Assembly: GCA_965243105.1 (NCBI GenBank)
Contig: CBDEUC010000003.1
Span: forward strand, 2,088,370 to 2,152,369
DNA length: 64,000 nt
Direction of reading: 5' to 3'
From: Gammaproteobacteria bacterium
Lineage (GTDB): Bacteria; Pseudomonadota; Gammaproteobacteria; Eutrophobiales; Eutrophobiaceae
Shown here: in pieces, positions 3,199 through 26,944 of the stretch
Layout: every line of letters starts with the position of its first letter
Numbering within the stretch: the stretch's first letter is position 1
Program-made: the position numbers and the translations under genes
The notes under the pieces: model-generated
Databases searched by the model: none
What the model was told of the DNA's origin: nothing
Seen by the model: the letters and a program-made list of their open reading frames with translations, nothing else

Positions 3199-3223
3199 GG
3201 TCAGGCCCTGTGCTGGTTGACAA

Positions 3224-3272
3224 TAGTTGCAATGACAACTAATATTTATTTAGTTGTATTAGCAACTAAATA
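3224..3272. promoter_or_regulatory. Two adjacent palindromic operator-like sites in the marR/hpd divergent promoter region
   Basis: TAGTTGcaatgaCAACTA (3224-3241) has 6-bp perfect inverted arms. TATTTAGTTGtattagCAACTAAATA (3247-3272) has 10-bp perfect inverted arms. Both share the AGTTG/CAACT core. Confidence 0.6.
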
Positions 3273-3319
3273 ATAACCCATGCCGTTCGTAACAACAGCA
3301 CTAAATTTGGAGTTAAATA

Positions 3320-4396
3320 ATGGCCGATCTTTTTGACAATCCCATGGGACTGGATGGATTTGAGTTTGTTGAATTTGCATCACCGAGGCCCGGTGTTCTT
3401 GAACCCCTGTTTGAACTGATGGGCTTTACCCATGTTGCCAGGCATCGCTCCAAGGATGTCAATCTTTACCGGCAGGGAGACATCAACTTCATCATTAATA
3501 ATGAGAAAAAAAATTACACTGCCTACTTTACCGAGGAACATGGTCCCTGTGCCTGTGGCATGGCGTTCAGGGTAAAGGATGCCCATCATGCCTATAACAG
3601 GGCGCTGGAACTGGGCGCGCAGCCCATCGACATTCCAGTGGGGCCCATGGAATTAAGATTACCGGCAATAAAAGGAATTGGCGGTGCACCGCTATACCTC
3701 ATCGATCGCTACCAGCAAGGTGCTTCTATTTATGATATTGATTTTGAATATCTCGAAGGCGTCGAAAAAAATCCGCAGGGCTTTGGCTTCAAGCATATCG
3801 ATCACCTGACGCATAATGTGTATCGCGGCCGCATGGACTACTGGGCTAACTTTTATGAAAAGATTTTTAATTTTCGCGAGCTGCGTTACTTCGACATCAA
3901 GGGCGAATATACCGGTCTCACTTCAAAGGCCATGACCGCGCCGGATGGTCGCATTCGAATACCACTCAACGAAGAGTCGTCCCAGGGTGTGGGGCAAATT
4001 GAAGAATTCCTGATGGCCTATAACGGCGAGGGAATCCAGCATATTGCCCTTGCCACTGACGATCTCATAGCCAGCTGGGACAAGTTGAAAGAAAGCGGCA
4101 TTTTCTTCATGACACCGCCACCGGCTGCATATTATGAAATGCTGGAGGAGCGATTACCCGGGCATGGAGAACCCGTGGAGGAATTGAAAAAGCGCGGTAT
4201 CCTCGTGGATGGCTCCACCGATGGCGAAGAACCACGATTGCTCCTGCAAATATTCTCTGAAACCGTGATTGGCCCGGTGTTTTTTGAATTTATCCAGCGC
4301 AAGCAGGATGAAGGCTTTGGCGAAGGTAATTTCAAGGCTCTGTTTGAATCCATCGAGAGAGACCAGGTACAGCGGGGGGTTGTGCAGGCAGTCTGA
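3320..4396 (+). CDS. hpd: 4-hydroxyphenylpyruvate dioxygenase
   Basis: 358-aa protein [22 protein letters not shown]... with a two-domain VOC fold. It resembles bacterial HPPD (Pseudomonas Hpd) throughout, including the C-terminal [14 protein letters not shown] motif. Confidence 0.93.
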
Positions 4397-4536
4397 TCCA
4401 GCGGTTCATTCCCGTTCCGGGGGATCCTTACTGAAGCAGGATGCCAAATTTTCCTACTCTGGATACAATTAGCGCACGAGCAAGAAGCTGTTTCCTGATA
4501 ATGGCTTCCTGAGCAAAGCGATACCAGGGTAAATCA

Positions 4537-5076
4537 ATGCCGCTAAGCCTAGAAGTTACAATAACAAGCGATCGTCTCCTGTTGCGCCCCGTGGAAAAGG
4601 ACGATCTCGACGACCTCGCCCTGGTAAACGGGGACGAAGAAGTCACGCGCTACTTACCCTATGAAACCTGGCGCTCAAGGCAGGACGCCGAAGCATGGTA
4701 TGACAAGGTCATGGGTCTTGTGAGCCAGGGCAAAACGCTCCAGCTAGTCGTCGTCATGCAGGAAAACCACAGGGTCATTGGTAGCTGTCTTCTTTTTAAC
4801 TATGACGAGTCATCGGGCGTCGCAGAATTAGGCTATGTCACCGGTCGCGAATTCTGGAGACAGGGGCTCACGGAAGAGGCACTTCGTATGTTGATCGCGT
4901 TTGGTTTTGACAAGATCAAGCTACGAAGATTATGCGCGGTTGTTGAGACGGATAACCGGGCATCCATGTCGCTTCTTAGCAAGCTGGGTTTTTCCAGTGA
5001 AGGCAAGGCCAGCCCCGAGCCTGGAGATAACATTGAGCTCATGAAATTCGGCCTGCTTCGACAGGAATGGTGCTGA
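4537..5076 (+). CDS. GNAT-family N-acetyltransferase (RimJ/RimL-like)
   Basis: 179-aa protein with the GNAT acetyl-CoA binding region (…VIGSCLLFNYDESSGVAELGYVTGREFWRQGLTEEALRMLIAFGFD…). Confidence 0.8.
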   Translation: MPLSLEVTITSDRLLLRPVEKDDLDDLALVNGDEEVTRYLPYETWRSRQDAEAWYDKVMGLVSQGKTLQLVVVMQENHRVIGSCLLFNYDESSGVAELGYVTGREFWRQGLTEEALRMLIAFGFDKIKLRRLCAVVETDNRASMSLLSKLGFSSEGKASPEPGDNIELMKFGLLRQEWC

Positions 5077-5088
5077 GAAACATTTGTC

Positions 5089-6084
5089 ATGAACAGGGTT
5101 CCGCAACTGGATGATATCAGGGAAGCTGCTAACCGAATTACAGGCGCTGTTCATCGCACACCGGTTCTTACCTGCCAGGCACTGGATGAGAAGTGCTCCG
5201 CCAGGCTGTTTTTCAAATGCGAGAACCTGCAAAAGGTCGGTGCTTTCAAGGCACGTGGTGCCACCAATGCCACCCTTGGACTGGATGATGCTTCCCTCCA
5301 GAAAGGCGTAGCAACCCATTCTTCCGGAAATCATGCAGCGGCGCTTTCCTATGCTGCGGGCCTGAAAGGAATCCCGGCCTATATCGTCATGCCGGAAAAT
5401 GCACCGCGGGTAAAAGTGGAGGCGGTGCGATCCTACGGGGGCCACATCACCTTTTGTGAACCCACCCTGCAGGCCAGGGAGTCCGGTCTTGAAAGTATTG
5501 TAGCCACGACCGGTGCCAACGTGATCCATCCCTATAATGATTATCGTGTTATTACAGGCCAGGCCACCGCAGCGTTTGAACTGCTTCATGACGTGGAAAA
5601 CCTCGATGTGATCCTGGCTCCTGTTGGTGGCGGAGGATTACTCAGCGGTACCGCGCTAAGTACGGCGTACCTTTCGCCTTCGACCAGGGTCATTGCCTGT
5701 GAACCGGCCGGGGCGGACGATGCCTTTCGTTCCTTTAAAAAGGGGGAAATAGTCCCCTCGGTCAAGCCGAATACCATCGCGGATGGCCTGCTCACATCAC
5801 TGGGTGACCTGACTTTTCCCATTATCCAGGAATACGTGGATGATATCGTGACTGTCAGCGAAAAAGGTATTGTCCAGGCAACACGTATGATCATGGAAAG
5901 AATGAAATGTGTCGTTGAACCCTCGGCGGCGGTGACGCTGGCTGCTATTCTTGAAGGAAAGATTGATGTCGCGGGCAAGAACGTCGGCCTGGTCCTGTCC
6001 GGGGGTAATATAGAGCTGGAAAAATTCCTGCAGCAGGCCGAATCAATAGAGGCCAATTCAACAGGGGCAGGATCAAGTGTCTGA
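5089..6084 (+). CDS. PLP-dependent fold-type II enzyme of the serine/threonine dehydratase / serine racemase family (no regulatory ACT domain)
   Basis: PLP-lysine motif GAFKARGA, glycine-rich loop PVGGGGLLSG, 331 aa. It starts 13 bp after the GNAT stop. Confidence 0.8.
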   Translation: MNRVPQLDDIREAANRITGAVHRTPVLTCQALDEKCSARLFFKCENLQKVGAFKARGATNATLGLDDASLQKGVATHSSGNHAAALSYAAGLKGIPAYIVMPENAPRVKVEAVRSYGGHITFCEPTLQARESGLESIVATTGANVIHPYNDYRVITGQATAAFELLHDVENLDVILAPVGGGGLLSGTALSTAYLSPSTRVIACEPAGADDAFRSFKKGEIVPSVKPNTIADGLLTSLGDLTFPIIQEYVDDIVTVSEKGIVQATRMIMERMKCVVEPSAAVTLAAILEGKIDVAGKNVGLVLSGGNIELEKFLQQAESIEANSTGAGSSV

Positions 6085-6541
6085 ATATACCGCATGTGTA
6101 AAGTGGCAAAGAGGAGAACAGGATTTCACTGACAACAGTTACAGCCGTGGCCATGAATGGATATTTGATGGTGGTCTCAGCGTGCCTGCCTCATCATCTC
6201 CCCATGTTGTGCCCTTGCCAATGTCAGTGGAATATAACGTGGACCCGGAGGAAGCTTACGTTGCGGCCCTTTCCAGTTGCCACATGCTGTTTTTTCTTTC
6301 CATCAGTGCTGCACGGGGCTTCACCGTGGATCAATATGTCGATAACCCCAGGGGTATCATGGAAAAAGATAGTTCCAACAGGGTCAGCGTTACGCGTGTC
6401 GAGCTTTGTCCTGAAACTGATTTCTCTGGCGAGGAACCTACAGGGGATGTCATTCATGAAATGCATGAACTGGCACATAAAAAGTGTTTCCTGGCCAATT
6501 CAGTCAGGTCGGAAATATCCATCAAGCTTGTTAAGGACTGA
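6077..6541 (+). CDS. OsmC/Ohr-family peroxiredoxin-like protein
   Basis: 154-aa protein with OsmC-family architecture and conserved Cys residues (SSCHMLFF…, …HKKCFLANSV). It overlaps the upstream gene by 8 nt, which suggests an operon. Confidence 0.75.
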   Translation: MSEYTACVKWQRGEQDFTDNSYSRGHEWIFDGGLSVPASSSPHVVPLPMSVEYNVDPEEAYVAALSSCHMLFFLSISAARGFTVDQYVDNPRGIMEKDSSNRVSVTRVELCPETDFSGEEPTGDVIHEMHELAHKKCFLANSVRSEISIKLVKD

Positions 6542-6544
6542 AGC

Positions 6545-7360
6545 ATGCCGATCCTGAATTCGGGGCGGATCAAGATTGATTACCTGGATGCCGGTCGAGG
6601 TCCCGTCGTCGTGCTGGTGCACAGCGCAGCCAGCAACTATAAACAATGGCGAAAACTGGTCGATGATTATCAGCACCGTTTTCGTTTCCTGGCGGTTAAT
6701 CTTTATGGTTATGGAGACACCACTCCCTGGCCGGGCTCAAAGGTTCAGTCCATGGAGGACCAGGTAAAGCTGGTTTCGAGTATTTGCCACCTCGTTGACG
6801 AACCGGTATTCCTCGTGGGTCATTCCTTTGGTGCGTCAGTGGCGGCATGGACTGCGAGGGAACTTCGCGAAAAAATAAAAGCCCTGGTTCTACTGGAAGC
6901 CAACCCGTTTCCCTTGCTTGAAAAGGAAAACAACCGGGGTGGCTACGATGAAATCCTGCTGTTAAGGGAAATCATCAAGAGTGAAGGTGATAACGGAAAC
7001 TGGGACATCGTTGCCGAGTACTTTGTCAATTACTGGCTGGGTGATGGTATGTGGAACAAGCTACCGCCTGATCGAAGAGAGGTGTTTACCGCCGCATTAC
7101 CAAATAATTACCACGAGTGGGATTCCATCATGGGTCTACCGGCGAATGACAGCAGCTGGCTCAGTATCGACGCCAACACCCTGTTTGTTCGAGCGCGCCA
7201 GACCGTAAATTCAATTACCGGGATTTACGAGGTGTTTCAGCAAATGTGTCCGCACTGGGAATTTCTCGTGGTTGAGGAAGGTGGCCACATGGCCCCTGTG
7301 ACACATCCGGATGCGATTAATCCGCACATCATTGACTTCCTGGATCAAAATCGTAGCTAG
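6545..7360 (+). CDS. alpha/beta-fold hydrolase
   Basis: Nucleophile elbow GHSFG, an N-terminal HG-type oxyanion region (VVLVHSAASN) and a late His (GGHMAP). 271 aa. It starts 4 bp after the osmC-like stop. Confidence 0.8.
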   Translation: MPILNSGRIKIDYLDAGRGPVVVLVHSAASNYKQWRKLVDDYQHRFRFLAVNLYGYGDTTPWPGSKVQSMEDQVKLVSSICHLVDEPVFLVGHSFGASVAAWTARELREKIKALVLLEANPFPLLEKENNRGGYDEILLLREIIKSEGDNGNWDIVAEYFVNYWLGDGMWNKLPPDRREVFTAALPNNYHEWDSIMGLPANDSSWLSIDANTLFVRARQTVNSITGIYEVFQQMCPHWEFLVVEEGGHMAPVTHPDAINPHIIDFLDQNRS

Positions 7361-8250
7361 TCAGCCGTGGCAGGTTTATAAAGAACAATATAGTTACCCA
7401 CCAGGATCAGCACAAACCCTGCGATAGCAACAAGTGTCCACTGGTAGTTTTCAAATATCGTGGAAATACCGAGGGCCACAACCGGGAACAACACGGCCGC
7501 GTAGGCGGCCTTGTCTGCACCGATTCTACCCACCAGTGTCAGGTAGCTGCCAAAGGCGATTATGGTTCCAAAGAAACTGAGATAAGCCAGCGAAATACTG
7601 TAGGCCCAGGCCGGGTCGTAATTAAACTCGGAACCCTGGATAAGTGCGTAAGTGAGCATGATAAGGGAGCCGTATGTCATTCCCCAGGCATTGGTCTGGA
7701 TGATGGGCAGGTCATTTTTCTGGTTGCGTGCTGAGAGCAGGTTGCCAAGCGACGCCGAGAAGGTTGCAACAAGGCAATACCATAGCCCGGTCAAGCTGGA
7801 TTTATCATTTTCAATTACGCTGACTTCAGACCAGAACACCGAAGCGATCCCGACAATACCGATCAGTGAGCCAATGACCGTGCGAATCTCAACCCGCTGC
7901 CCCATGAAGATCGCGCCATTAACAATATTCATCAGGATTACCGTGGAGAACAACAGGGCGACGACACCAGAAGTTAACAGGCCAGTGGCCCAGTAGAAAA
8001 TCAGGTAGTTAATGCAGTACAGGCAGAGCCCCTGCAAAAACATGAACAGGTGTTCGCGGGGAGAAAATCGCAGGCTTCGTTTTGTAAGAATACAAAATAT
8101 AAAAAGAATGATTGCCGCTGCCACGAAGCGATACACCAGTGAAACTTCCGGCGCCACGACTCCAAGCTGGAACTTGATAGCAAACCAGGTGGTACCCCAG
8201 ATCAGAACCGAGCTGAGGTACAGGGAAGCGGAATGCATAAGAATATTCAT
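7357..8250 (-). CDS. DMT-superfamily (EamA-like) membrane transporter
   Basis: 297-aa protein with about 10 TM segments and duplicated EamA domains (MNILMHSASLYLSSVLIWGTTWFAIKFQL…). Confidence 0.8.
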   Translation of the reverse strand: MNILMHSASLYLSSVLIWGTTWFAIKFQLGVVAPEVSLVYRFVAAAIILFIFCILTKRSLRFSPREHLFMFLQGLCLYCINYLIFYWATGLLTSGVVALLFSTVILMNIVNGAIFMGQRVEIRTVIGSLIGIVGIASVFWSEVSVIENDKSSLTGLWYCLVATFSASLGNLLSARNQKNDLPIIQTNAWGMTYGSLIMLTYALIQGSEFNYDPAWAYSISLAYLSFFGTIIAFGSYLTLVGRIGADKAAYAAVLFPVVALGISTIFENYQWTLVAIAGFVLILVGNYIVLYKPATAD

Positions 8251-8305
8251 AGCGACGGGCCTGGCTTTTTAACACGGCGCAGCGAGAAACTGCGCCCTTC
8301 CTGGT

Positions 8306-8968
8306 CTAGATGGAAACGGACATTTCCGGCACGTTGTCCGGAACGACCAGTTCCCCTGCGGTCAGCTTGACGATTTCTTCAACGCTGACACCAGGCGCCC
8401 TTTCCACGAGGTGAAACTTGCCATCGCTGATTTCCACGTAAGCAAGATCGGTAACAACCTTTTTTATGCAGGCGGCACCGGTCAGCGGCAGGCTGCACGC
8501 TGGCAGTAACTTTGACTCGCCGTGCTTACTGGCATGGGTCATGGTAACGATGATGTTATCCGCACCCGCAACCAGGTCCATGGCACCCCCCATGCCCTTG
8601 ATCAACTTACCCGGGATCATCCACGAGGCGATATTACCCTGTACGTCCACCTCAAAGGCGCCCAGCACGGTGAGATCCACGTGCCCACCCCGGATCATGG
8701 CAAATGAATCGGCGGATGAAAAAATAGATGCACCGGTAATCGCCGTGACAGTTTGCTTTCCTGCATTGATCATGTCGGCGTCCAGTTCTTCCTCGGTAGG
8801 AAACGGTCCCATGCCAAGAAGACCATTCTCGGACTGCATCATGACTTCCATGCCTTCGGGAATGTAATTTGCCACCAGGGTAGGAATACCAATACCCAGG
8901 TTTACGTAGTAACCGTCCTGCAGCTCCTGCGCCACGCGCATTGCCATTTGTTCTCGTGTCAGTGCCAT
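8306..8968 (-). CDS. scoB: 3-oxoacid CoA-transferase subunit B
   Basis: 220-aa protein with the ENGLLGMGPFP motif carrying the catalytic Glu of family I CoA-transferase B subunits. It sits directly downstream of subunit A. Confidence 0.88.
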   Translation of the reverse strand: MALTREQMAMRVAQELQDGYYVNLGIGIPTLVANYIPEGMEVMMQSENGLLGMGPFPTEEELDADMINAGKQTVTAITGASIFSSADSFAMIRGGHVDLTVLGAFEVDVQGNIASWMIPGKLIKGMGGAMDLVAGADNIIVTMTHASKHGESKLLPACSLPLTGAACIKKVVTDLAYVEISDGKFHLVERAPGVSVEEIVKLTAGELVVPDNVPEMSVSI

Positions 8969-8981
8969 TACAGTAATTCCC

Positions 8982-9683
8982 TCATTCTGCTCGAATCGTG
9001 CGCTGCTCTATGCGCTTCTCAAACGTATTCTCGATAAGACGATTAACATATATGCCCGGTGTATGAATCTGTGACGGCTCAAGTTCCCCGGGCTCTACGA
9101 TTTCTTCAACTTCAACCACGGTGATCCTGCCGGCGGTTGCGGCCATTGGGTTAAAGTTCTGCGCCGTGTGACGATAGATCACATTGCCATAACGATCGGC
9201 TTTCCAGCCCCTGACGATGGCAAAGTCGCCGGTGATGGCCTCTTCAAGAATATAATTACGTCCATTAAATTCGCGCACTTCCTTGCCTTCCCCCACCGGA
9301 GTGCCGTAGCCGGTTGCCGTGTAAAATGCCGGGATGCCCGCGCCGCCTGCGCGCATTTTCTCCGCCAGCGTGCCCTGGGGTGTCAGTTCTACTTCAAGTT
9401 CATCACTCAGGAATTGCCGTTCAAACTCCGCGTTTTCCCCAACGTAGGAAGACACCATTTTGCTTATCTGTTTCCCCTGCAGCAGGATCCCCAGGCCAAA
9501 ATCATCTACACCACAGTTATTTGAAACGACGGTAAGATCATTGACGCCCATCTCCTTGATCTGGGCAATGCACCCTTCAGGAATGCCGCACAGGCCAAAG
9601 CCACCAGCAATGATAGTCATGCCACTTTCAAGGCCCGCCATCGCCTCTTCAAAACTGCCTACAACCTTGTCAAAACCTGACAT
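8982..9683 (-). CDS. scoA: 3-oxoacid CoA-transferase subunit A
   Basis: 233-aa protein [36 protein letters not shown]…, typical of CoA-transferase A subunits (ScoA/AtoD). Confidence 0.88.
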
Positions 9684-9779
9684 AAATTACTCCGTGAAAA
9701 TTTTCTTCAGAACGCCAAAATGGCGCTAGCATAGCAATAACAACACGATTTTATAAATCAAATAGCACTTCCGTAGCGG

Positions 9780-9804
9780 CCTGGATAGTCCACGTCAATC
9801 CAGG
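9780..9804. promoter_or_regulatory. Inverted repeat CCTGGAT-N11-ATCCAGG upstream of scoAB
   Basis: 7-bp perfect inverted arms between the hydrolase stop and the scoA start. It is not followed by a T-tract, so it is more likely an operator than a terminator. Confidence 0.3.
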
Positions 9805-9854
9805 TGCCCTGTACAGCCTCGTTTTCGCGCGCTGAGCCTGGATCAGCGTCAATT

Positions 9855-10634
9855 TTATAACCCGTCTACAAAGCCCTGCATTAACTCCAGGCAGGTTTCT
9901 TGCTGGTCCCTGAAGGGAGTGTGCCTGCAGTTGCCCAGCATATGTAAATCCGAAGGGCCGCTGCATTGCGTTGCAATAGCATCCAGCTGTGCCCGGGTGG
10001 CATACTCATCCTCGTTTCCCTGCACCAGGAGCAGGGGGCAGTGCACGTCGGGAAGTATTTCCTCAATGTTCCATTCAAGCACTTCCGGGTTTGCCCAGAA
10101 GTCATACCATCCAAAAAATGCGCCATCCACATCATCATGGTAGGCCGCCAGTTTTTCGCGCAGGCCAGACTCTTTATAGGCATTGAGCACGGGTACCACG
10201 CTACTCCAGGTCTCTTTCTCTACGAAAGTATGGGGTGCCATCAGCACCATGCCCGTAGTAGTGGGCAGCTGGTTTGTTGCCGCGTAAATCAGAGCAATGG
10301 TGGCACCGTCACTGTGTCCAATCAGTACGGGTTCTTCAATTTCCATAGATACCAGCAGGGGTGCAAGCACATCGCAGGCCTCGTAGCTATGGTAGTCATT
10401 TTGCCTGGGCTCACTTAAACGGCTGGATTTGCCGTAGGATTCCCTGCTGTATAAAAAAACGTCCTGGCCGGTGCGCTCATGTAACTTTTGCGGAAAATCC
10501 TTCCAGGCAGAAACCGAACCCAGCCCTTCATGCAACAGGACCAGGGTCTTTGCCGAATTTTCTTCTCCCCGAATCCAGCGATATTCGATACTGGCATCAC
10601 CAAGACTGCATATGCCGTCTTCCTGGTTTGGCAC
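9855..10634 (-). CDS. alpha/beta-fold hydrolase
   Basis: Nucleophile elbow GHSDG and an HEGLGS-type oxyanion region. 259 aa. It is the last gene of the FAH-maiA-hydrolase operon, with a 7-bp gap to maiA. Confidence 0.78.
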   Translation of the reverse strand: MPNQEDGICSLGDASIEYRWIRGEENSAKTLVLLHEGLGSVSAWKDFPQKLHERTGQDVFLYSRESYGKSSRLSEPRQNDYHSYEACDVLAPLLVSMEIEEPVLIGHSDGATIALIYAATNQLPTTTGMVLMAPHTFVEKETWSSVVPVLNAYKESGLREKLAAYHDDVDGAFFGWYDFWANPEVLEWNIEEILPDVHCPLLLVQGNEDEYATRAQLDAIATQCSGPSDLHMLGNCRHTPFRDQQETCLELMQGFVDGL

Positions 10635-10641
10635 GGCGGCT

Positions 10642-11292
10642 TCAGGCTACCGCGTCGGGTTGCGCTTCGGGGATTGCAGCCTGGAATGCCTCGAGCTCAA
10701 GGCAGTTATTTTCTATCTCCAGCAGTGTCGGGAAATCCTCGAGCGGAACGTCAAAACGGTGTGCGTTGTATAACTGCGGAACCAGGCAGATATCGGCGAT
10801 ACTGACTGAATCGCCCATGCAATAGGGGCCTTTCCAGGAAGAAGCGCCGAGAGTTTTTTCCAGCGCATTAAAACCCAGTACTATCCAGTGTACGTACCAC
10901 GCATCTTTTTTACTGTCGTCTACTTTCAATTCATGCTTGAGATACTTGAGGACCCTCAGGTTATCAAGCGGATGAATATCACAGGCTATGCTGAGCGCAA
11001 GCTGCCTGGTCATGGCACGTTGCTCCGCGTCACCAGCTATTAATGGAACCTGGGGATAGCGCTCATCGAGGTATTCCATGATGGCCAGTGACTGGCTTAA
11101 GGACACATCACCATCAACAAGGGTTGGTACAAGACCCTGGGGGTTTATGGCTTTATATTCATCCTTGTGCTGTTCGCCCCCGTCTTTGAGCATGTGAACA
11201 GCAACAGTTTCATATTCCAGCCCTTTCAGGTTTAATGCAATCCGCACCCTGTAGGCCGCAGATGAGCGCCAGTAGCTGTAGAGTTTGATCAT
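10642..11292 (-). CDS. maiA: maleylacetoacetate isomerase (zeta-class GST)
   Basis: MIKLYSYWRSSAAYRVRIALNLKG… has the characteristic SSxxYRVRIAL zeta-GST N-terminus. 216 aa. It overlaps the FAH stop by 4 nt. Confidence 0.9.
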   Translation of the reverse strand: MIKLYSYWRSSAAYRVRIALNLKGLEYETVAVHMLKDGGEQHKDEYKAINPQGLVPTLVDGDVSLSQSLAIMEYLDERYPQVPLIAGDAEQRAMTRQLALSIACDIHPLDNLRVLKYLKHELKVDDSKKDAWYVHWIVLGFNALEKTLGASSWKGPYCMGDSVSIADICLVPQLYNAHRFDVPLEDFPTLLEIENNCLELEAFQAAIPEAQPDAVA

Positions 11293-12281
11293 TCCGCAGG
11301 AGTGTACTGTTTAACTTTCTGATCGATCTTGCCGAAAATGGACTCACCATTTTTATCAAGCATCTCTATTTCAATGCGGTCACCAAACTGCATGAAAGGT
11401 GTTGAAGGCTTGCCGTCGGCAATGGTTTCAAGACAGCGAATTTCTGCCAGGCACGAGGAGCCATCCTTGCTGCCAACATTGGCAATAGTACCGGAGCCGA
11501 TGACTGTTCCAGCCATGAGAGGCCTTGATTTTGCGGCGTGGTTAATGAGCTGGGGAAAATCAAACACCATGTCGACACCGGCATTGGGTGTGCCTACCTT
11601 TTCCCCGTTCAGGGTGCTGTGCAGGGGCAGGTGCACGCGTTTACCATCCCAGGCATCACCAAGTTCGTCGGGTGTGATCGCCACCGGTGTAAAAGAAGTG
11701 TGGGGCTTGGACTGGTAAAAACCAAACTGCTTTGCAAGCTCTGCCGGGATGAGGTTTCTCAGTGAGACATCATTGACGAGCGCAATAAGCTTGATGTGCT
11801 TGCCGGCATTGTCTACCGACACGCCAGCGGGGACATCATCAGTAAAGACGACAACTTCCGATTCAAAATCAATTCCCCAGGCCTCGTCCTGAACCGGGAT
11901 ATCATCATGGGGACCCAGGAAAACATCGGATGCACCCATGTACATCAGGGGATCTGTCCAGAATGATTCCGGAAGCTCTGCGCCCCTGGCCTTTCGCACC
12001 AGTTCCACATGGGTGACATAGGCACTGCCATCTGCCCAGTGGTAAGAGCGGGGCAGGGGAGCTGCAAGTGTGCTGGTATCAAGATCAAAGCTGTCCTCTG
12101 CCGTACCTTCCTGCAGCTGATCAAACACCGCTTCAAGCTGCGGCGCTTTTTCACTCCACTCGTCCATGGCTGCCTGCATCGTGTGCGCTATTGCCGGCAC
12201 TTTTACAGCCCTTGTCATATCACGGTTAACCACGATAAGCGTGCCGTCACGGCCGCCTTCTTTGAGACTCGCTAGTTTCAC
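11289..12281 (-). CDS. fumarylacetoacetate hydrolase (FAH)-family enzyme, probable fumarylacetoacetase of the homogentisate pathway
   Basis: 330-aa FAH-fold protein (…GSGTIANVGSKDGSSCLAEIR…). It is translationally coupled to maiA and divergent from hmgA. The short form differs from the 430-aa HmgB type, so function is assigned by context. Confidence 0.75.
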   Translation of the reverse strand: MKLASLKEGGRDGTLIVVNRDMTRAVKVPAIAHTMQAAMDEWSEKAPQLEAVFDQLQEGTAEDSFDLDTSTLAAPLPRSYHWADGSAYVTHVELVRKARGAELPESFWTDPLMYMGASDVFLGPHDDIPVQDEAWGIDFESEVVVFTDDVPAGVSVDNAGKHIKLIALVNDVSLRNLIPAELAKQFGFYQSKPHTSFTPVAITPDELGDAWDGKRVHLPLHSTLNGEKVGTPNAGVDMVFDFPQLINHAAKSRPLMAGTVIGSGTIANVGSKDGSSCLAEIRCLETIADGKPSTPFMQFGDRIEIEMLDKNGESIFGKIDQKVKQYTPAE

Positions 12282-12364
12282 TTGTTTCTCCCGCTGTAGA
12301 GCAATACCCGGACCTTACCATCATTCTAGCTCCTGGATTGAGCGAATTCCGGATTCTTGAAATT

Positions 12365-12380
12365 AGTTACATTTGTAACT
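12365..12380. promoter_or_regulatory. Palindromic operator-like site in the FAH/hmgA divergent promoter region
   Basis: AGTTACAttTGTAACT has perfect 7-bp inverted arms. Its AGTTRC half-site is related to the hpd-region palindromes. Confidence 0.55.
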
Positions 12381-12420
12381 ATACTGCTTTTATTCTATAC
12401 GTCAAGCAGAGGTTATCGAC

Positions 12421-13752
12421 ATGGCTACCGTGATGAAAACGGATAATGACGCACAAGCGGATGCTGCCGCGGAACTTGAATACCTGAATGGTTTCGGCAA
12501 TGAACATCAATCCGAAGCCCTTGAGGGTGCCTTACCGCGTGGACAATTTTCGCCACAAAAAGTCCCCTACGGGCTGTATGCGGAGAAATTCTCTGGTACA
12601 GCCTTTACCGCACCAAGGGCAAGCAATTTTCGCAACTGGTTTTATCGAATCCGGCCGTCCGTTGTGCAGGGTGATTTTGAGCGCATGGATAATGGCCTTA
12701 TCAGGAGCGGTCCAATCACCGAGATCGAAACACCGCCAAACCAGCTGCGCTGGGATCCCTTTCCTGTTCCAGAGACGTCCACGGATTTTATCGAGGGTTT
12801 AACTACGATTGCAGCCAACGGTAACGTGGGTGTGACCGGGATCGGTATCCACATGTACCTGGCTAACAGCAGCATGGAGAAACGTTTCTTTTATAACAGT
12901 GACGGTGAGTTACTTATCGTACCGCAACAGGGGACATTTCGAGCCCATACTGAATGCGGTGTACTGGATGTTCGACCGGGCGAGATATGCGTGATTCCAC
13001 GGGGTATCAAGTTCCGTGTTGTATTACCGGATGGGCCGAGTCGTGGGTATGTGTGTGAGAACTATGGAGCACAGTTCCAGCTTCCGGAACGTGGCCCGGT
13101 GGGTTCAGACGGTTATGCTAACGACCGGGATTTCCTTGCTCCCGTTGCAAGCTATGAAGACCGGGAAGGCGAATTTGAGCTGGTAAACAAGTTTATGGGT
13201 AACCTGTTTCGCTGTGATATCGGTCATTCACCGCTCGATGTCGTGGCCTGGGTCGGCACCGCGGTTCCCTACAAGTATGATCTTTCACTGTTTAATACCA
13301 TGAACACGGTGAGTTACGATCACCCTGATCCATCCATCTTCACGGTACTTTCATCCCAGCTTGATTCACCGGGCGTGGCTAACGCGGATTTTGTTATTTT
13401 CCCGGCGCGATGGATGGTGGCCGAGGACACGTTTCGCCCACCCTGGTATCACCGTAACCTGATGAGTGAATTCATGGGTTTGATCCATGGTATGTACGAT
13501 GCCAAGCCCGAGGGCTTTGTGCCAGGCGGTGCAAGTTTACACAACAGCATGTCAGCCCATGGGCCTGATGTTGATGCCTTTGAGGGGGCGTCAAATGCTG
13601 AGCTTAAACCACATCGATACGACAATACCCTGGCTTTCATGTTTGAATCGCGCTTTGTTATCCAGCCAACAAGGTATGCACTTGAGTGTGAGCAGCGACA
13701 GGCCAACTACGTACACTGCTGGCAGGGCCTCAACAAGCATTTCGGTAAGTAA
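12421..13752 (+). CDS. hmgA: homogentisate 1,2-dioxygenase
   Basis: 443-aa protein matching HGO across its length (…[46 protein letters not shown]…, …[21 protein letters not shown]…). Confidence 0.93.
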
Positions 13753-13757
13753 GCAAA

Positions 13758-14225
13758 ATGACAAAGTCGGTGCCAGGCATTCTTGACCTGAAGAACTTCC
13801 TGCCTTATCGCCTGTCTGTTGTGACAAACAAGGTCAGCAGTAACCTGGCCAGTATGTATTCGCTCAAGTTTGACCTGAGCATTGCCGAGTGGCGTGTCAT
13901 GGCAGTACTGGGGCAGCAAAGCGATCTGTCGGCAGATGAAGTCTGTCGTGAAACAGAGATGGACAAGGTGACAGTAAGCCGCGCCGTGACAAAATTGCTC
14001 AAGAAGAAACTGTTGCAGCGCAGTTTTTCCAGGGAAGACCGGCGTCGCTCTATTCTTTGCCTGTCCAGCCGCGGCTACTCTACCTACTCGCAGATAATCC
14101 CCATGGCATTGAGCTATGAGGAATCCCTGCTGTCCGCGCTAAGTGAAAAAGAGGCCAGGCAACTGGATGAACTGCTGCTCAAGTTGAACGGGCAGGCACA
14201 GGCGTTGGCTCAATCTGAAGGCTAA
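13758..14225 (+). CDS. MarR-family transcriptional regulator (paralog of 2746..3198)
   Basis: 155-aa protein that starts 5 bp after the hmgA stop. It has strong block similarity to the hpd-linked MarR. Confidence 0.85.
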   Translation: MTKSVPGILDLKNFLPYRLSVVTNKVSSNLASMYSLKFDLSIAEWRVMAVLGQQSDLSADEVCRETEMDKVTVSRAVTKLLKKKLLQRSFSREDRRRSILCLSSRGYSTYSQIIPMALSYEESLLSALSEKEARQLDELLLKLNGQAQALAQSEG

Positions 14226-14260: not shown

Positions 14261-15982
14261 CTACCCACGCCCTGCATCGAGCAGGTTATTTAACTCCTCG
14301 CTGTGGAACCGTGCGCGTTTTCCCGTGGGTTGCAGCTCTTCTTCGTAAAAGAAAGCGGGTAGCTCGTCATCTTTCTCGGTAAACCCGGCAGCCTTGTTAA
14401 ACTCAGTTTCAAGCTCAAGGGTTTTGCGGCCGAGTTTCATAAAGAAAGAACTGTCAAGGTCAGTGCCATGGGCATCGTTGATGGCATTGGCAACCAGTTC
14501 AAGCTCCGCGGTCGTGACACTGCGTCCAAATAAACACAGGCCAAGGGAATCGGTCGCTGCGAATCCAATTTGCGTATCAAGGCTGGCTTCAAGCACCTCC
14601 TTTGCACCTTTGCCGGTCGCATCAAAACGAGGCAGGTTACCCGCGGTGTGATCCGCACCCTGTGCAGAAAGCATCATGGTCACGCCGGTGACTTCGACAA
14701 CACGTGGATCGTATGCACTGATAGCCTGCTTCTTGATAACCGGTACACGTTCAACGCCATAGTGTTCACCTACACGTGCTGTGCCCTGCGCCCAGAGTTT
14801 TCCGTCCTCACTTCCCTTGCGAATTTCTTCCAGCACGCTGATGATAAAATCCAGGTCACCAAACTTGCCGACGCCGGCTTCCATCAGTACGCCAATCATG
14901 GCACCGGTTTCAATGGTGTCAATTCCCAGGTCGTTGGCGATGTAATTGATATGGGCAAGATCGTCAGGATCGGATAATCCGCAATTGGTACCCATGAGAC
15001 CGATGGTTTCATACTCGACTGGTGACACGACTTCGTTACCATCCTTGTCGGCGTAAATATTACTGCACTGGATCAGGCAGCCAGGCATACAGGCATGGGA
15101 AGGATCGCCGCCACGAGCGATGTTCTGCTCGCGGATGAAATCACCACCCATTTTCATGGTCTCCTTATCTGTATCAACCAGCCGACCGTTACTGAAATTA
15201 TTCACCGGCAGGCCTCCGATATGATTCATATAGTCAGCCATCATGGCCGTCCCCAGTTTTCGATAACTGTCCACCATGCTATCGGTCTTTATTTTGCCGG
15301 CATATTCCTTGATCGCGCCGATCACTTTCTTGCGCTCGTGTAGCTCCGGCATCTTGTGCAGTTCCATGACAATTGCCTTCACCCTTTTACTACCCATCAC
15401 CGCCCCGATTCCTCCCCGGGCTGCGAGACGTGAGGGTCGCAGGTCAGTATCACTGATAGCGATACCTGCCAGGAGTCCCTGGTATTCTCCTACGGGGCCG
15501 CACAGGGCAATACTGGTTTTCTTACCGTACTTTTCATGCAGCTGGGCCGCTGTTTCAAAATTCCCCTTGCCCATGTAGGGCCTGGCATCGTCAAAATTTA
15601 TATCGCCTTCTTTTGATATGTGAATAATCACCCACTCATCAGCGACGCCATAGAGATTCAGTCCCGAGATATGTAACTGGCCCATGGCAACACCCAGCGT
15701 GCCTCCCGCATTGGCTTCCTTGATACCACCTGTCAGTGGACTCTTGCAGCCGAAACTGGTGCGGTTGGCATTGGAAAAGTTGGTGCCTGCAAAGGGGCCG
15801 GCTGAAATAATCAAGGGGTTGTCAGCGGACAGGGGATCCACCTTTGCAATATCGTTCTCACAAAGGGTCTTTGCGATAAGATAACGACCGGCAAAGGCGA
15901 CTTCTTCGCCACTGATTTCCTTCTTGTCGATTTCCTTTTTATCCAGGTCTATGTGCAGGTATGAGCGCGAGACATTTGTCAT
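14261..15982 (-). CDS. aldehyde:ferredoxin oxidoreductase (AOR) family, tungsten/molybdopterin-dependent
   Basis: 573-aa protein. It matches Pyrococcus-type AOR motifs: DPLSADNPLIISAGPFAGT…KSPLTGG, AARGGIGAVMGSKRVKAIV, C-x(3)-C in MPGCLIQC, and C-terminal DSLGLCLF. Confidence 0.85.
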   Translation of the reverse strand: MTNVSRSYLHIDLDKKEIDKKEISGEEVAFAGRYLIAKTLCENDIAKVDPLSADNPLIISAGPFAGTNFSNANRTSFGCKSPLTGGIKEANAGGTLGVAMGQLHISGLNLYGVADEWVIIHISKEGDINFDDARPYMGKGNFETAAQLHEKYGKKTSIALCGPVGEYQGLLAGIAISDTDLRPSRLAARGGIGAVMGSKRVKAIVMELHKMPELHERKKVIGAIKEYAGKIKTDSMVDSYRKLGTAMMADYMNHIGGLPVNNFSNGRLVDTDKETMKMGGDFIREQNIARGGDPSHACMPGCLIQCSNIYADKDGNEVVSPVEYETIGLMGTNCGLSDPDDLAHINYIANDLGIDTIETGAMIGVLMEAGVGKFGDLDFIISVLEEIRKGSEDGKLWAQGTARVGEHYGVERVPVIKKQAISAYDPRVVEVTGVTMMLSAQGADHTAGNLPRFDATGKGAKEVLEASLDTQIGFAATDSLGLCLFGRSVTTAELELVANAINDAHGTDLDSSFFMKLGRKTLELETEFNKAAGFTEKDDELPAFFYEEELQPTGKRARFHSEELNNLLDAGRG

Positions 15983-16143
15983 GTATTTATAACTCCAAAT
16001 TCAATGTTAAGCAGTTACGTGGCAAACACTTGCATTGACAGATTAGCGGACCTTCAGCGGCAGGGATGCCGCTGTTGAGCGTACATGGAAGTATTCACAG
16101 CGCGTCCGCGTTCTGTCGATGTAAGTGCATTCCAGCTTTAGTC

Positions 16144-18135: not shown

Positions 18136-18690
18136 ATGTCGAACAGTTTCTGGGAATTTTCCGTAGCGACCTATGGCAAAGATGGTGTGCCCGCGGCCTG
18201 TCTTGGCCTGCAGGATAGCCTGGATGTGGATGTTAATGTCCTGCTGTTTTGTTGCTGGTTTGGACTGACACGTGGTCATATCGAGGAAGAAAGATTTACG
18301 CAACTGCTGGCAGCTTCTGAATTGTGGGCGAGCAGGGTAGTGAGACCTCTTCGAGGAGCCAGGCGCTGGATGAAGGAAGAAGTCTATGAATCTCTCCAGC
18401 TGGATACAGAGAGCGTGTCGAGCCTGCGTGAAAAAATAAAGAGTAACGAGCTTGGTGCAGAGAAAATCCAGCAGGATTTACTACTGGCAATTGTGGAAGA
18501 TCTTGCGGGTAAGCAGATGAACGTGGAAGAGCAGCTGGATGCGGTGCTTGATAATATACGGCGCTACCTCGGTAAAAAGGAAATCCAGGTTGTTGGCGCC
18601 AGCGCCGCTGACCTTTGTCATGTTATCTCGTCTGCCAGTGACGATTTTGATAGCGCTGCCGTGAGAGCAAGGCTTGAACAACACTCCTAG
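18136..18690 (+). CDS. hypothetical protein, DUF2390/TIGR02444-like
   Basis: 184-aa protein MSNSFWEFSVATYGKDGVPAACLGLQD…. Family assignment is from memory. Its stop overlaps the ubiX stop by 4 nt (convergent). Confidence 0.5.
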   Translation: MSNSFWEFSVATYGKDGVPAACLGLQDSLDVDVNVLLFCCWFGLTRGHIEEERFTQLLAASELWASRVVRPLRGARRWMKEEVYESLQLDTESVSSLREKIKSNELGAEKIQQDLLLAIVEDLAGKQMNVEEQLDAVLDNIRRYLGKKEIQVVGASAADLCHVISSASDDFDSAAVRARLEQHS

Positions 18691-19259
18691 TCTTTACGAC
18701 GGTTTCCTTCCCACCGTTTCACAATACCGGAATCCATGGCAAACAGGTCCAGCACGCGTCCTACCGAATGGTTGACGATGTCATCGATAGTTTCCGGCCG
18801 GTTGTAGAAGGCGGGCATGGGAGGTGCCAGCTGGATCCCCATCTGCGCAGCTTCATAAAGTAAGCGGCAATGCCCAACATGAAGCGGTGTCTCCCGGGGC
18901 ATGAGGACGAGCTTGCGTCCTTCCTTGAGAACAACATCTGCTGCGCGCGATAACAGGTCATCAGCATAGGAATTAACGATCGCTGAAAGGGTTTTCATGG
19001 AGCAGGGTGCGACTATCATGCCATCGGTTCTAAAGGAGCCACTGGATATCGTCGCCGCAACGTCGTTAAAGTTATGCTGTACATCGGCCAGTGCTTCAAC
19101 ATCCTTGATTTGCAGGTCAGTCTCAATGGGGATATTCATCTTGGCCGTAGGCGACATGACAAGATGTGTTTCCACGTCCTTCTGTTCTTTCAGTACCTGT
19201 AGCAGGCGAATACCGTATATCACGCCGCTTGAGCCAGAGATGCCTATAATCAGGCGCAT
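18687..19259 (-). CDS. ubiX: flavin prenyltransferase UbiX (prFMN synthase)
   Basis: MRLIIGISGSSGVIYGIRLL… is the canonical UbiX/Pad1 N-terminus. The start is taken at ATG 19259, because the ORF-track extension to 19337 has no homology. About 190 aa. Confidence 0.88.
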   Translation of the reverse strand: MRLIIGISGSSGVIYGIRLLQVLKEQKDVETHLVMSPTAKMNIPIETDLQIKDVEALADVQHNFNDVAATISSGSFRTDGMIVAPCSMKTLSAIVNSYADDLLSRAADVVLKEGRKLVLMPRETPLHVGHCRLLYEAAQMGIQLAPPMPAFYNRPETIDDIVNHSVGRVLDLFAMDSGIVKRWEGNRRKD

Positions 19260-19463
19260 TGCTGTGGTCCTCTTTTCATCACCAGTGGGAGTATAGCAGT
19301 AAGCCCCTGCGCGTTTACAAGGGGCGAAATATTGCAATGCACCAAATCACTTATTTCGCAGACTGGAACCTGTGCTGAATTCATCTTCAAGTCGTCGTGA
19401 CAAAGGTTATACTTTGAAAAATCCCGACCTGTTTCAGTCAATATTTAATAGAAGGTAATCATC

Positions 19464-20828
19464 ATGGATCTTGCCAAACGCAACTTGATAGACATGCAGC
19501 AGTATCTTGCATTCCTCGAAGAAAACGATCACCTGGTACGTGTAAAAAGCGAGGTTGATCCTTACCTCGAACTGGCAGGTATCGCAAAAAAGTATGAGGG
19601 CGGTAAAGCCGTATATTTTGAAAAAGTAAAGGGAAGCGAATTCCCGGTGCTGCTTGGTTTCTATTGGAACCGCGACATATTGGCAAAGCTTTTCAACGTG
19701 GCTTCCGGCGATTTACCCTTCGTTATTGCAGACGACATCAGGGCCTGGCGACAGTCGCCAATGGAGTCACCGGTACTCAAGCAGGGACCGGCCAATGAAG
19801 TGATTGAAGATGAAGTCGATCTTTATGCATTGCCTATCCCGCATCATTCAGAAGGCGATGGCGGTTGCTACCTCACATCCAGCGTCGTGGTGGCAAAGGA
19901 TCCGGACACCGGTGTGCGCAACCTCTCCGTGCATCGCATGATGGTCGTTGGAAAAAACCGCTTTACGCTGCTGCTGGAAGAACTCGGCCACCTGATGGAT
20001 TATTTCAAGCGGGCGGAAGCGAAGGGCGAGGCGCTGGAATTGACAGTGAGTAACGGAATCGATTTTCCAGTCCTGATGGCAGCCGCTGCCCCTGCGTCCG
20101 CCGCACCCATGGAAATGGATGAAGTTGGCATTGCCAGCCAGCTGCGTGGCGAGCCGGTTGAGTTACTGGAATCGCAAACCGTTGGTGTTGAAGGAATTGC
20201 CAATGCCCAGTTTATTATCGAGGGAAAGATCCTTCCCAACATTCGAGAGCCGGAAGGACCGTACGCAGAGGTCACAGGTTATTATGCAGAGAGGGAAGAC
20301 CGCTGGGTATTTGAAGCAACTGCAGTCACGCGCCGTAAAGACCCCGTTTTCCAGTCCATCCTTTCTGGTAAAGAGGTGTATAACGCCTTTGGAATTGGCG
20401 CCAGCGCAGCCGTATTTGACAAGGTCCACTCGGTGGTTCCGGATGTGACCGCAGTACACTTTTCCAATGGCTCTGTGCCCTATCACCTGGTCGTGCAGAT
20501 TGACAAGAAGCATGAAGGTATTCAGCGTAATGCCATGATGGCGGCGTTCGTGTCTCATCCCTTCGTCAAGACGGTGACCCTGGTCGATCCTGACGTGGAC
20601 ATTTACAGCGTCGACGATGTTGAGTGGGCTGTACAAACACGTTGTCGTTTTGACCAGGACGTGATTTTTGCAGATGGCATCGGACACCGGCTCAATCCCA
20701 GCGTGGAGAATGATCACTGGACGCGTATCGGTTTTGACGCCACCGTGCCCTTGCCAAAAGAGGACAAGTTTGTTCGCGCCACTGTCAAGCAGGTAAACCT
20801 CGAAGACTATGAAATTGAAGGCGGCTAG
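19464..20828 (+). CDS. UbiD-family (prFMN-dependent) decarboxylase
   Basis: 454-aa protein. The N-terminus aligns to E. coli UbiD (…VDPYLELAGIAKKYEGGKAVYFEKVKGSEFPVLLGF…). The conserved EGPYAEVTGYY block (E. coli EGPYGDHTGYY) is present. It is divergent from ubiX. Confidence 0.85.
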   Translation: MDLAKRNLIDMQQYLAFLEENDHLVRVKSEVDPYLELAGIAKKYEGGKAVYFEKVKGSEFPVLLGFYWNRDILAKLFNVASGDLPFVIADDIRAWRQSPMESPVLKQGPANEVIEDEVDLYALPIPHHSEGDGGCYLTSSVVVAKDPDTGVRNLSVHRMMVVGKNRFTLLLEELGHLMDYFKRAEAKGEALELTVSNGIDFPVLMAAAAPASAAPMEMDEVGIASQLRGEPVELLESQTVGVEGIANAQFIIEGKILPNIREPEGPYAEVTGYYAEREDRWVFEATAVTRRKDPVFQSILSGKEVYNAFGIGASAAVFDKVHSVVPDVTAVHFSNGSVPYHLVVQIDKKHEGIQRNAMMAAFVSHPFVKTVTLVDPDVDIYSVDDVEWAVQTRCRFDQDVIFADGIGHRLNPSVENDHWTRIGFDATVPLPKEDKFVRATVKQVNLEDYEIEGG

Positions 20829-25023: not shown

Positions 25024-25385
25024 TGGTGGAGGCGGCGGGAGTCGAACCCGCGTCCGCAAGTACTCTGCCTTTGGTTCTACATGCTTAGCCGACTCTATTA
25101 ATTTAACTGGCTGCTACCCGAACGGCAGGGAAAACAATCAGCGAGTTCGTAAAGTTTTAACGAATCATTCCCGAACAAAAGTCATCGCGAGCTTATGTGA
25201 GTCGACGCCTGGAACCGGGCGCATAAGCACACACCGGGCAGACGGCACCCTACTGGGTATTAAGCAGCGAGTGCGTAGTTGTCGTCGTTGGCAACTATAT
25301 AAAGTGCAGCTGGTTTAACGAGGTAATCTGCACCTCGGCATGCCCCTCGGGTTTCGCTACCCACGTCGAAGCCAAGTGCGCCCCC
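25024..25385 (-). ncRNA. ssrA: tmRNA (SsrA), tag peptide ANDDNYALAA
   Basis: Minus-strand 5' GGGGGCGCACUUGGCUUCGACGUGGGUAGCGAAACCCGAGGGGCAUGCCGAGG… and 3' …GGACGCGGGUUCGACUCCCGCCGCCUCCACCA. The tag reading frame is GCCAACGACGACAACUACGCACUCGCUGCUUAA. Length is about 362 nt. A terminator hairpin AAAGCCACttttGTGGCTTTT follows. Confidence 0.92.
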
Positions 25386-26467: not shown

Positions 26468-26944
26468 TCAGCCCCGCTTCATAATGCGTTGTTTTTGCCT
26501 CTGCCAGTCCCTGTCCTTCAGGCTGTCCCGCTTGTCGTGAGCCTGTTTGCCCCTCGCGATACCGATTTCGACCTTGGCCTTACCTCGTTTCCAGTACATC
26601 GCCGTGACCACCAGGGTAAATCCCTTTCGTTCAACGGCACCGGTCAGGCGGTCAATCTCTTTCTTGTGTAGCAGTAATTTTCGACTCCGCCTCGGGTCCG
26701 GCGTGATATGGGTAGATGCCGTGGGAAGAGGTGTAATCAGGGTGCTTTGCAGGAAAATCTCTCCGTTCTTCAGGTGCACATAGTTATCCCGAATCTGGAC
26801 TTTACCCGCGCGCAGGCTTTTAACTTCCCACCCTTCGAGAACGATGCCTGCTTCCAGCCGATCTTCAATAAAGTAGTCATGTCTCGCCTTCTTGTTCAGA
26901 ACGATCGTGTTGGAACCCTGCTTTTGTTTTTTATCTGCTGCCAT
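26468..26944 (-). CDS. smpB: SsrA-binding protein
   Basis: [48 protein letters not shown]… is canonical SmpB. 158 aa. Confidence 0.93.

Follow-up and report, generated by a model that had tools for sequence, protein, structure and literature searches.

An AOR/WOR-family gene beside the homogentisate genes of a gammaproteobacterium, and the bacterial clade to which it belongs

The window analysed here is a 64-kb stretch of a gammaproteobacterial genome (contig CBDEUC010000003.1). At 14261..15982, on the minus strand, it carries a gene of the AOR/WOR family, whose enzymes continue to be portrayed as a distinguishing mark of anaerobes, and the neighbouring hmgA-marR unit belongs to an O2-dependent homogentisate pathway. 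We consider it likely that the gene encodes a Class I AOR/WOR-family aldehyde oxidoreductase from a native bacterial clade, that aerobes use this enzyme, and that it stands outside the homogentisate regulon. The family, fold, residue conservation, clade placement, native composition and synteny of the gene, together with the absence of an operator and of partner genes, carry this reading.

The gene, its fold and its cofactor residues

The open reading frame (ORF) at 14261..15982 starts with ATG on the minus strand and encodes 573 residues. Pfam places AFOR_N (PF02730/IPR013983; 3.8e-53) at residues 8–206 and AFOR_C (PF01314/IPR001203; 2.8e-60) at residues 224–569, so that the two domains together span the full length of the protein, as in WorL. 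No NCBIfam equivalog is reached; the YdhV-type and GAPOR models match in part, at the N terminus, with scores far under their cut-offs. The top relative of solved structure is PfAOR (1aor; 2e-54, 188 bits), followed by C. autoethanogenum AOR (CaAOR), bifurcating AOR, Haloferax WOR83 and FOR. The AlphaFold2 model, computed with 58 homologues in the alignment, has a pLDDT of 90.7 and a pTM of 0.92, and Foldseek superimposes it on 1aor, 9mqx, 9g7j, 1b25 and 8c0z with TM-scores of 0.87–0.89 (E-values of 1e-33 to 1e-39), which indicates that the predicted protein adopts the three-domain AOR fold. ORF, Pfam and fold thus bear out the assignment to the AOR family made by the initial annotation. The gene and its elements are as follows.

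14261..15982, minus strand: AOR/WOR-family (WorL-type) single-subunit aldehyde oxidoreductase gene (ORF, Pfam, AlphaFold2, Foldseek)
15993..15996, minus strand: GGAG, Shine-Dalgarno-like, 10 nt 5′ of the ATG, read off the sequence
15365..15961, minus strand: N-terminal domain, residues 8–206, the base that carries the bis-pyranopterin, with R74, N91, R185, C79 and C161 (Pfam PF02730 and alignment)
14276..15313, minus strand: domains 2 and 3, residues 224–569, with T245, Y324/E325, Y424, H445 and the pterin motif N350-D-L-G-I-D355-T (Pfam PF01314 and alignment)
15065..15091, minus strand: [4Fe-4S] motif C298-MPG-C302-LIQ-C306 (C-x3-C-x3-C), counterpart of PfAOR C288/C291/C295
14534..14551, minus strand: D478-S-L-G-L-C483, second pterin motif and fourth cluster cysteine (PfAOR D489...C494), with D478 and C483 invariant
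15744-15746, 15498-15500 and 14979-14981, minus strand: C79, C161 and C334, extra cysteines that are invariant in the marine-clade alignment

To assess residue conservation, we aligned 197 clade members and PfAOR with MAFFT. The cluster cysteines C298, C302, C306 and C483 are invariant (197/197), while R74, N91 and R185 (R76, N93 and R182 of PfAOR) and the motifs G353-x-D355-T356 and D478-S-x-G-x-C483 are invariant or nearly so. In addition, the second-shell residues T245, E325 (within Y324-E325), Y424 and H445, which correspond to T243, E313, Y427 and H448 of PfAOR, are invariant; these four positions form the signature of aldehyde-oxidising WORs (PMC13328260, PMC12096430). These cofactor and catalytic residues are kept across the wider superclade as well (98 sequences). 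The cysteine cluster region and the DSxGxC motif, on which the initial annotation had based its view that the protein looks functional, are therefore both present, the former in the exact form C298-x3-C302-x3-C306 and with no cluster cysteine lost in the 197 relatives; with the cluster cysteines, most pterin-binding residues and the catalytic residues conserved, the 573-residue protein does look functional.

The cysteine that serves as metal ligand in YdhV (C336) aligns to V318 of the present protein. Because V318 occupies the position of the YdhV/BamB cysteine ligand and the second shell is intact, we assign the protein to the aldehyde-oxidising type. C334 was considered as a YdhV/BamB-type metal ligand and ruled out, since the YdhV ligand aligns to V318 and C334 is found in CaAOR and bifurcating AOR too. 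C79 and C161 are specific to the clade (T81 and I163 in PfAOR), and both lie at the ends of predicted β-strands in domain 1; the idea that they form a co-varying pair was dropped, as the superclade alignment shows no co-variation. The Fe ligands that bridge the PfAOR dimer, E332 and H383, are not kept: the corresponding residues are H344 and I381 here, and they vary within the clade.

Clade placement and hosts

A word-indexed search returns thousands of homologues, of which the top 120 are all ~570 residues long and 67–100 % identical. An exhaustive search of 50 %-identity representatives reveals a wider set of ~570-residue proteins at 27–41 % identity and ~205–420 bits, mostly well over the 188 bits of PfAOR. 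We aligned 98 representatives of this superclade with six references (PfAOR, CaAOR, bifurcating AOR, HvWOR83, FOR and YdhV; GAPOR, WOR4 and GOR were left out) and calculated a bootstrapped neighbour-joining tree, in which the superclade is split from all six references in 100/100 bootstraps and a tight clade around the present protein (at least 59 % identity) is likewise supported in 100/100. Identity to the references is 29–31 %, and 19 % to YdhV. The former value is what has been reported for comparisons of recognised AOR subfamilies with each other, while members of the PfAOR subfamily are ~50 % identical to one another (PMC6365974). Furthermore, the cluster motif reads C-x3-C-x3-C in ~85 of the 98 superclade sequences, with S-N next to it in nearly all, and C-x2-C-x3-C in all six references, and Lys450 of PfAOR is lost in nearly all members of the superclade.

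The protein therefore does not group with archaeal AOR sensu stricto (PfAOR, clade 87), to judge from the 29–31 % identity and the 100/100 separation among the six references, and it lacks the motifs of that clade (C-x2-C-x3-C, Lys450 and E332/H383). Nor does it fall in WOR clade 83: it scores 142 bits at 29 % identity against 9q1t, which lies outside the superclade in the tree. By sequence, it is a member of a large bacterial superclade of ~570-residue proteins that is neither clade 83 nor clade 87. The description "archaeal-type" does not hold, as the superclade is bacterial, separates at 100/100 bootstrap support and is equally far (29–31 %) from archaeal AOR/FOR and from bacterial AORs. 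The subfamily is uncharacterised biochemically and has probably been catalogued already; the host genera of the tight clade are absent from the supplements of PMC13328260. One mention of "tungsten" in a Congregibacter paper proved to concern a lamp.

The tight clade is resident in oxygen-respiring marine bacteria, which include free-living, algal-surface and sponge- or coral-associated forms. Specifically, the genome loci belong to Granulosicoccaceae, Halioglobus, Rhodospirillales, Thalassospiraceae and Rhizobiaceae, to unclassified gammaproteobacterial metagenome-assembled genomes (MAGs), several of them with sponge- or coral-type isolate names, to MarineAlpha and TMED MAGs, to AG-series single-cell genomes from the surface ocean, and to a few Chloroflexota and Methylomirabilota. 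A superclade that is largely associated with anaerobes appears to have given rise to a lineage spread among oxygen-respiring marine bacteria. As a separate observation, one WOR on the Chloroflexi branch of the superclade (P0371, a relative of P0136) has a fused ThiS/MoaD domain (PF02597), a fusion that echoes the ThiS-like "WorX" gene found beside some Class I WORs.

Surroundings in the window and in relatives

The AOR gene is convergent with the hmgA-marR unit on the opposite strand, and 35 bp separate the stop codons. The features around it are as follows.

12421..14225, plus strand: hmgA-marR unit, with hmgA at 12421-13752 (TIGR01015, 661.9 bits) and marR at 13758-14225 (Pfam MarR_2)
12364..12381, no strand assigned: MarR-type operator TAGTTACATTTGTAACTA, in the divergent promoter region between FAH and hmgA, not part of the AOR unit
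3224-3241 and 3251-3268, no strand assigned: second and third copies of TAGTT-N8-AACTA, before HPPD in the divergent region between MarR and HPPD
16055..16074, minus strand: GC-rich hairpin with an 8-bp stem, a 4-nt loop and no T-run, between the GGT stop and the AOR start (palindrome scan)

The hmgA gene closes a complete tyrosine/homogentisate island at 1093-13752, which comprises a pyridoxal phosphate-dependent aromatic amino-acid decarboxylase (1093-2589), a MarR regulator (2746-3198), HPPD, ketoacid CoA-transferase A and B (ScoAB), an alpha/beta hydrolase, maiA (maleylacetoacetate isomerase, GST-zeta type), FAH, hmgA and the second MarR. The perfect palindrome TAGTT-N8-AACTA has exactly three matches in the 64 kb, all of them exact, and is kept between hmgA and FAH in the three closest genomes (L001-L003). 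It is likely the binding site of the MarR-type regulator(s) encoded at 2746-3198 and/or 13758-14225, and would mark the homogentisate regulon. Upstream of AOR and of GGT there is no copy, even when one mismatch is allowed. From the convergent orientation and the lack of an operator we conclude that the AOR gene neighbours the homogentisate regulon and is not a member of it. The placement beside hmgA-marR that the initial annotation had pointed out is accordingly real as adjacency; the annotation left the strand unstated, and a functional tie to the unit is not supported.

On its other side, the AOR gene follows GGT on the same strand. The hairpin at 16055..16074 possibly separates the two transcription units. 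Co-transcription of GGT and AOR was considered, given the shared strand and gaps of ~25 to 161 bp in relatives; with the hairpin between the genes and a signal peptide on GGT, we propose no functional link. A promoter scan of the AOR gene gave just weak σ70-like matches at chance level.

We then compared 77 related loci, with ~20 kb inspected per genome. There is no universal neighbour, and no family dominates the 249 neighbouring genes; those met most often are amidase (10), GlcF (7), OmpA (7), thymidine kinase (6) and BoxC-type enoyl-CoA hydratase (6). Several arrangements recur. The closest relatives (L001-L003) share the order GGT>AOR<marR<hmgA. In ~9–11 gammaproteobacterial MAGs (L004-L015, e.g. 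L007:8435-15000), amidase>AOR>boxC>boxB lie on one strand, with BoxC and BoxB passing their equivalog cut-offs, and these loci also hold a MarR, an XDH-family enzyme resembling 4-hydroxybenzoyl-CoA reductase, a FeaR-like regulator and a nitrilase. No BoxD-type aldehyde dehydrogenase occurs within 10 kb in the box loci, and an Aldedh-family gene is found within 10 kb in just 2 of 80 loci; the box clusters may rely on the AOR homologue instead of BoxD for the aerobic benzoyl-CoA pathway. Seven loci of Granulosicoccus or Halioglobus type (L020, L023, L034, L039, L049, L065 and L066) have glcD>glcE>glcF>AOR on the same strand, an arrangement that suggests oxidation of glycolaldehyde or a glyoxylate-related aldehyde. 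In four Granulosicoccaceae loci (L016-L019), a gene for a chaperone of the XdhC/CoxI family, which inserts molybdenum cofactor (Moco), lies directly downstream on the same strand (AOR>xdhC). Taken together, these contexts agree with an aldehyde oxidoreductase that stands alone, is probably broad in range and has repeatedly been set beside aerobic catabolic genes.

Neither the window nor the 77 loci has a WorS or other subunit gene adjacent to AOR, the GlcF of glycolate oxidase apart, and GlcF is the only ferredoxin-type ORF within 5 kb in those loci. A regular-expression search of window ORF segments of at least 40 aa finds no genuine ferredoxin motif, and Rfam finds no Moco riboswitch in the window. 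Class I WORs use a ferredoxin encoded elsewhere (PMC13328260). On the lack of adjacent partner genes, the protein is a Class I (WorL-only) WOR in the published scheme.

Interpretation and comparison with known systems

In our favoured reading, the protein would be a single cytoplasmic subunit that binds one metal-bis-pyranopterin and one [4Fe-4S] cluster; by family precedent the metal would be tungsten, with molybdenum possible. An aldehyde would be converted to the carboxylic acid at the metal centre, with Glu325 and His445 as the acid/base pair by analogy with PfAOR, and two electrons would leave by way of the cluster for a ferredoxin or flavodoxin, a small soluble carrier whose gene would lie elsewhere in the genome. 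The likely role would be broad oxidation or detoxification of aldehydes, with the acids supplied to aerobic catabolic pathways. We infer the aldehyde substrates, the carrier, the metal and the activity in the presence of O2 from relatives and from gene context.

Several points weigh against this reading. The members of the superclade are known from sequence, and none has been characterised biochemically. Of the pterin- and Mg-binding residues of PfAOR, D338 is replaced by an invariant Asn and K450 by Ala or Thr (A447 here), so cofactor binding could differ, and the cluster loop has one extra residue (C-x3-C-x3-C versus C-x2-C-x3-C). As the initial annotation had noted for ferredoxin, tungstate transporter and pterin-maturation genes, Pfam scans of the 64 kb (all non-overlapping ORFs of at least 150 aa and a 142-aa CBS ORF) find no ferredoxin, Moco-biosynthesis, ModABC/TupABC or ThiS/MoaD gene, a search that an ~80-aa MoaD-sized gene could escape. 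Likewise, clustering, the ferredoxin expression and Pfam of the 249 neighbours reveal no recurrent ferredoxin, WorS, ThiS/MoaD, TupA or Moco partner in the 77 loci. Oxic seawater offers little tungsten. The sister branch occurs mostly in Anaerolineae/Chloroflexi MAGs, so that O2 tolerance of the family is not a given; many host genomes are MAGs with inferred physiology, and some hosts, such as sponge symbionts, meet periodic anoxia.

One alternative, which we hold to be clearly less probable, is the following: the enzyme would be O2-sensitive like classical AORs and used just in anoxic or microoxic episodes (in sponge tissue, biofilms or particles), and its aerobic neighbours would be incidental. 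Exposure to air inactivates most characterised WORs within minutes (PMC9424855), record titles identify several hosts as symbionts of sponges or corals or as attached to surfaces, the sister branch resides in Anaerolineae, and AOR is regulated separately from hmgA. However, the clade is also present in surface-ocean single-cell genomes and in TMED and MarineAlpha MAGs; in ~10 genomes its gene lies on the same strand between amidase and boxC-boxB, which encode an O2-requiring pathway, with no BoxD-type dehydrogenase nearby; and the invariance of C79 and C161, confined to this clade, hints at adaptation. The premise that AOR enzymes belong to anaerobes only, from which the initial annotation started, is dated: BmWOR works in air (PMC9424855), and the present clade recurs beside O2-dependent pathways in other lineages. 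Scavenging of aldehydes under microoxic conditions, which the initial annotation had suggested, is a possible role.

A bolder version of the favoured reading, which we put forward tentatively and would not expect to hold in full, is that the tight clade constitutes a second, independent O2-compatible AOR lineage, far wider than clade 83, that marine aerobes and symbionts of invertebrates or algae routinely use instead of NAD(P)-dependent aldehyde dehydrogenases, for example at the missing BoxD step, perhaps with molybdenum, and with C-x3-C-x3-C, Cys79 and Cys161 as part of the adaptation. A comparative-genomics survey found AOR and TupABC to be relatively enriched in aquatic bacteria (PMC6147048).

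The metal itself could depart from precedent. It is conceivable, although we judge it rather unlikely, that the clade uses Mo and not W, as a Mo-bis-pyranopterin like that of E. coli YdhV, in adaptation to Mo-rich, W-poor oxic seawater. YdhV demonstrates that the AOR fold can prefer Mo (PMC12096430), and the pterin-contacting residues are changed superclade-wide (K450 to Ala, D338 to Asn). In addition, AOR is followed directly by an XdhC-type Moco chaperone gene in 4 loci and has XDH-family molybdoenzyme genes in its vicinity in ~12, and no locus has a tungstate transporter. Set against this, every characterised aldehyde-oxidising member that has the T/E/Y/H second shell depends obligately on W (PMC12096430), whereas YdhV-type proteins lack the second shell and have an added Cys ligand, neither of which is true of this protein. 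Aerobes that use W are known (PMC9424855, PMC13197769), and, as ~20 kb per genome was inspected, tupABC could lie elsewhere.

A comparable degree of doubt attaches to the proposal that AOR serves as a step specific to the catabolism of aromatic amino acids, in which 4-hydroxyphenylacetaldehyde or phenylacetaldehyde, formed from tyramine or phenylethylamine by way of the decarboxylase at 1093-2589, would be oxidised to arylacetates that feed the adjoining homogentisate pathway. The window does hold the full tyrosine island (AADC, HPPD, hmgA, maiA, FAH and ScoAB), and the AOR-hmgA adjacency is kept in L001-L003. Phenylacetaldehyde is a substrate of both PfAOR and Aromatoleum AOR, and growth on phenylalanine induces the Aromatoleum enzyme (PMC13328260, PMC6365974); a FeaR-like regulator lies near the L007 homologue. 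Yet AOR is convergent with hmgA-marR, TAGTT-N8-AACTA stands at both pathway promoters and not at AOR, and neither an amine oxidase nor an arylacetate hydroxylase was found in the window. Moreover, the adjacency is limited to the closest relatives, and proteins 72–78 % identical occur in box, glc and unrelated contexts.

The composition of the gene bears on its origin. At third codon positions its GC content (GC3) amounts to 0.563, where the window averages 0.568 (z = -0.11), and in codon usage it stands 0.515 from the rest of the window, one of the smallest distances in the set of 56 genes, so that the profile is indistinguishable from that of the flanks. Synteny with the three closest genomes extends over 13 neighbouring genes, and AOR is 77–78 % identical to its relatives there, mid-range among its neighbours (43–90 %). 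Its nonsynonymous divergence (pN) is 0.14–0.15 compared with 0.11–0.13 for hmgA, with synonymous sites saturated; by these sequence measures, purifying selection acts on the gene as it does on its neighbours. Pfam scans of the window ORFs find no mobile-element genes flanking AOR. These measures mark AOR as a vertically inherited resident gene and do not support recent transfer. Horizontal acquisition, which the initial annotation had entertained, is thus very improbable as a recent event with archaea or strict anaerobes as donors: the tight clade crosses Gamma-, Alpha- and Betaproteobacteria, Chloroflexota and Methylomirabilota at 59–78 % identity, which points to lateral spread at some time, and its sister branch is in Chloroflexi, but composition, synteny, mid-range divergence and the lack of mobile elements all argue otherwise, and archaeal enzymes are no closer than bacterial ones.

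The genes of most atypical composition in the window lie elsewhere, at 44019-46563 and 48651-50186, where five ORFs (185–511 aa) have no Pfam match; four of them have low GC3 (z of -1.4 to -2.4), and the 255-aa ORF at 44576-45343 is normal (z of +0.31). At 18687-20828, there is a divergent pair of genes for a UbiX flavin prenyltransferase and a UbiD-family decarboxylase, with a DUF2390 gene alongside; the arrangement is syntenic in relatives, and the pair is probably an aromatic acid decarboxylase system, with VdcB/VdcC-like scores under the cut-off. A tmRNA gene (25024-25385, minus strand; tag ANDDNYALAA) lies near smpB (26468-26944, minus strand), and 27051-29465 on the minus strand encodes an 804-aa protein with a Ser/Thr protein kinase domain and an HDOD domain.

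For this gene the result is modest: the family had been recognised correctly, and the "archaeal", "acquired" and "linked to hmgA" readings fail. The presence of an anaerobe-type enzyme among dioxygenase genes is a real and recurrent feature of the clade, and reflects neither an archaeal import nor a component of the homogentisate pathway. A conserved clade in oxygen-respiring marine bacteria, repeatedly found beside O2-dependent aromatic (homogentisate, benzoyl-CoA epoxidase) and glycolate pathways, points to overlooked pterin/Fe-S aldehyde oxidation in oxic oceans and raises the question of its trace-metal demand for W or Mo.

Among known systems, PfAOR (1aor, clade 87, Class I) shares with the present protein the three-domain fold (TM-score 0.87), the single subunit, the four cysteines, R76/N93/R182, DSxGLC and the second shell, and most likely the same chemistry, from aldehyde to acid with a ferredoxin-type acceptor. 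The two differ in that identity is 29–31 % and the present protein is ~30 residues shorter, with C-x3-C-x3-C, Asn for D338, Ala for K450 and no E332/H383; moreover, PfAOR comes from a hyperthermophilic anaerobic archaeon, whereas the present host is a mesophilic marine bacterium.

E. coli YdhV and Geobacter BamB (clades 41 and 62) share the superfamily fold (TM-score ~0.8 to BamB). Unlike these, which have a Cys metal ligand and no second shell, the present protein has Val318 and an intact shell, is 19 % identical to YdhV and has no WorS-type partner. The three-subunit AorABC of Aromatoleum aromaticum (8c0z, Class III) is closer in setting, being proteobacterial and mesophilic, and shares the fold (TM-score 0.88); it is relatively O2-tolerant and linked to the metabolism of phenylalanine and aromatic aldehydes (PMC6365974). 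However, genes for AorA (polyferredoxin) and AorC (FAD) do not lie beside the present gene or its 77 relatives, and the match is 140.6 bits at 27 % identity.

The closest functional analogy is offered by clade 83, with BmWOR of Brevibacillus massiliensis and HvWOR83 of Haloferax volcanii (9q1t), which are single-subunit WORs in aerobes. Clade 83 differs from the present protein in sequence (29 % identity and 142 bits, compared with 300–420 bits for superclade members) and has C-x2-C-x3-C and an Arg at the position of K450. O2 tolerance has been characterised for BmWOR, whereas the present clade is known from its genes. BmWOR is the one characterised precedent for a WOR at work in an obligate aerobe: with ferredoxin as acceptor it functions in air, and its preferred substrates are aromatic aldehydes whose products enter the aerobic breakdown of aromatics (PMC9424855).

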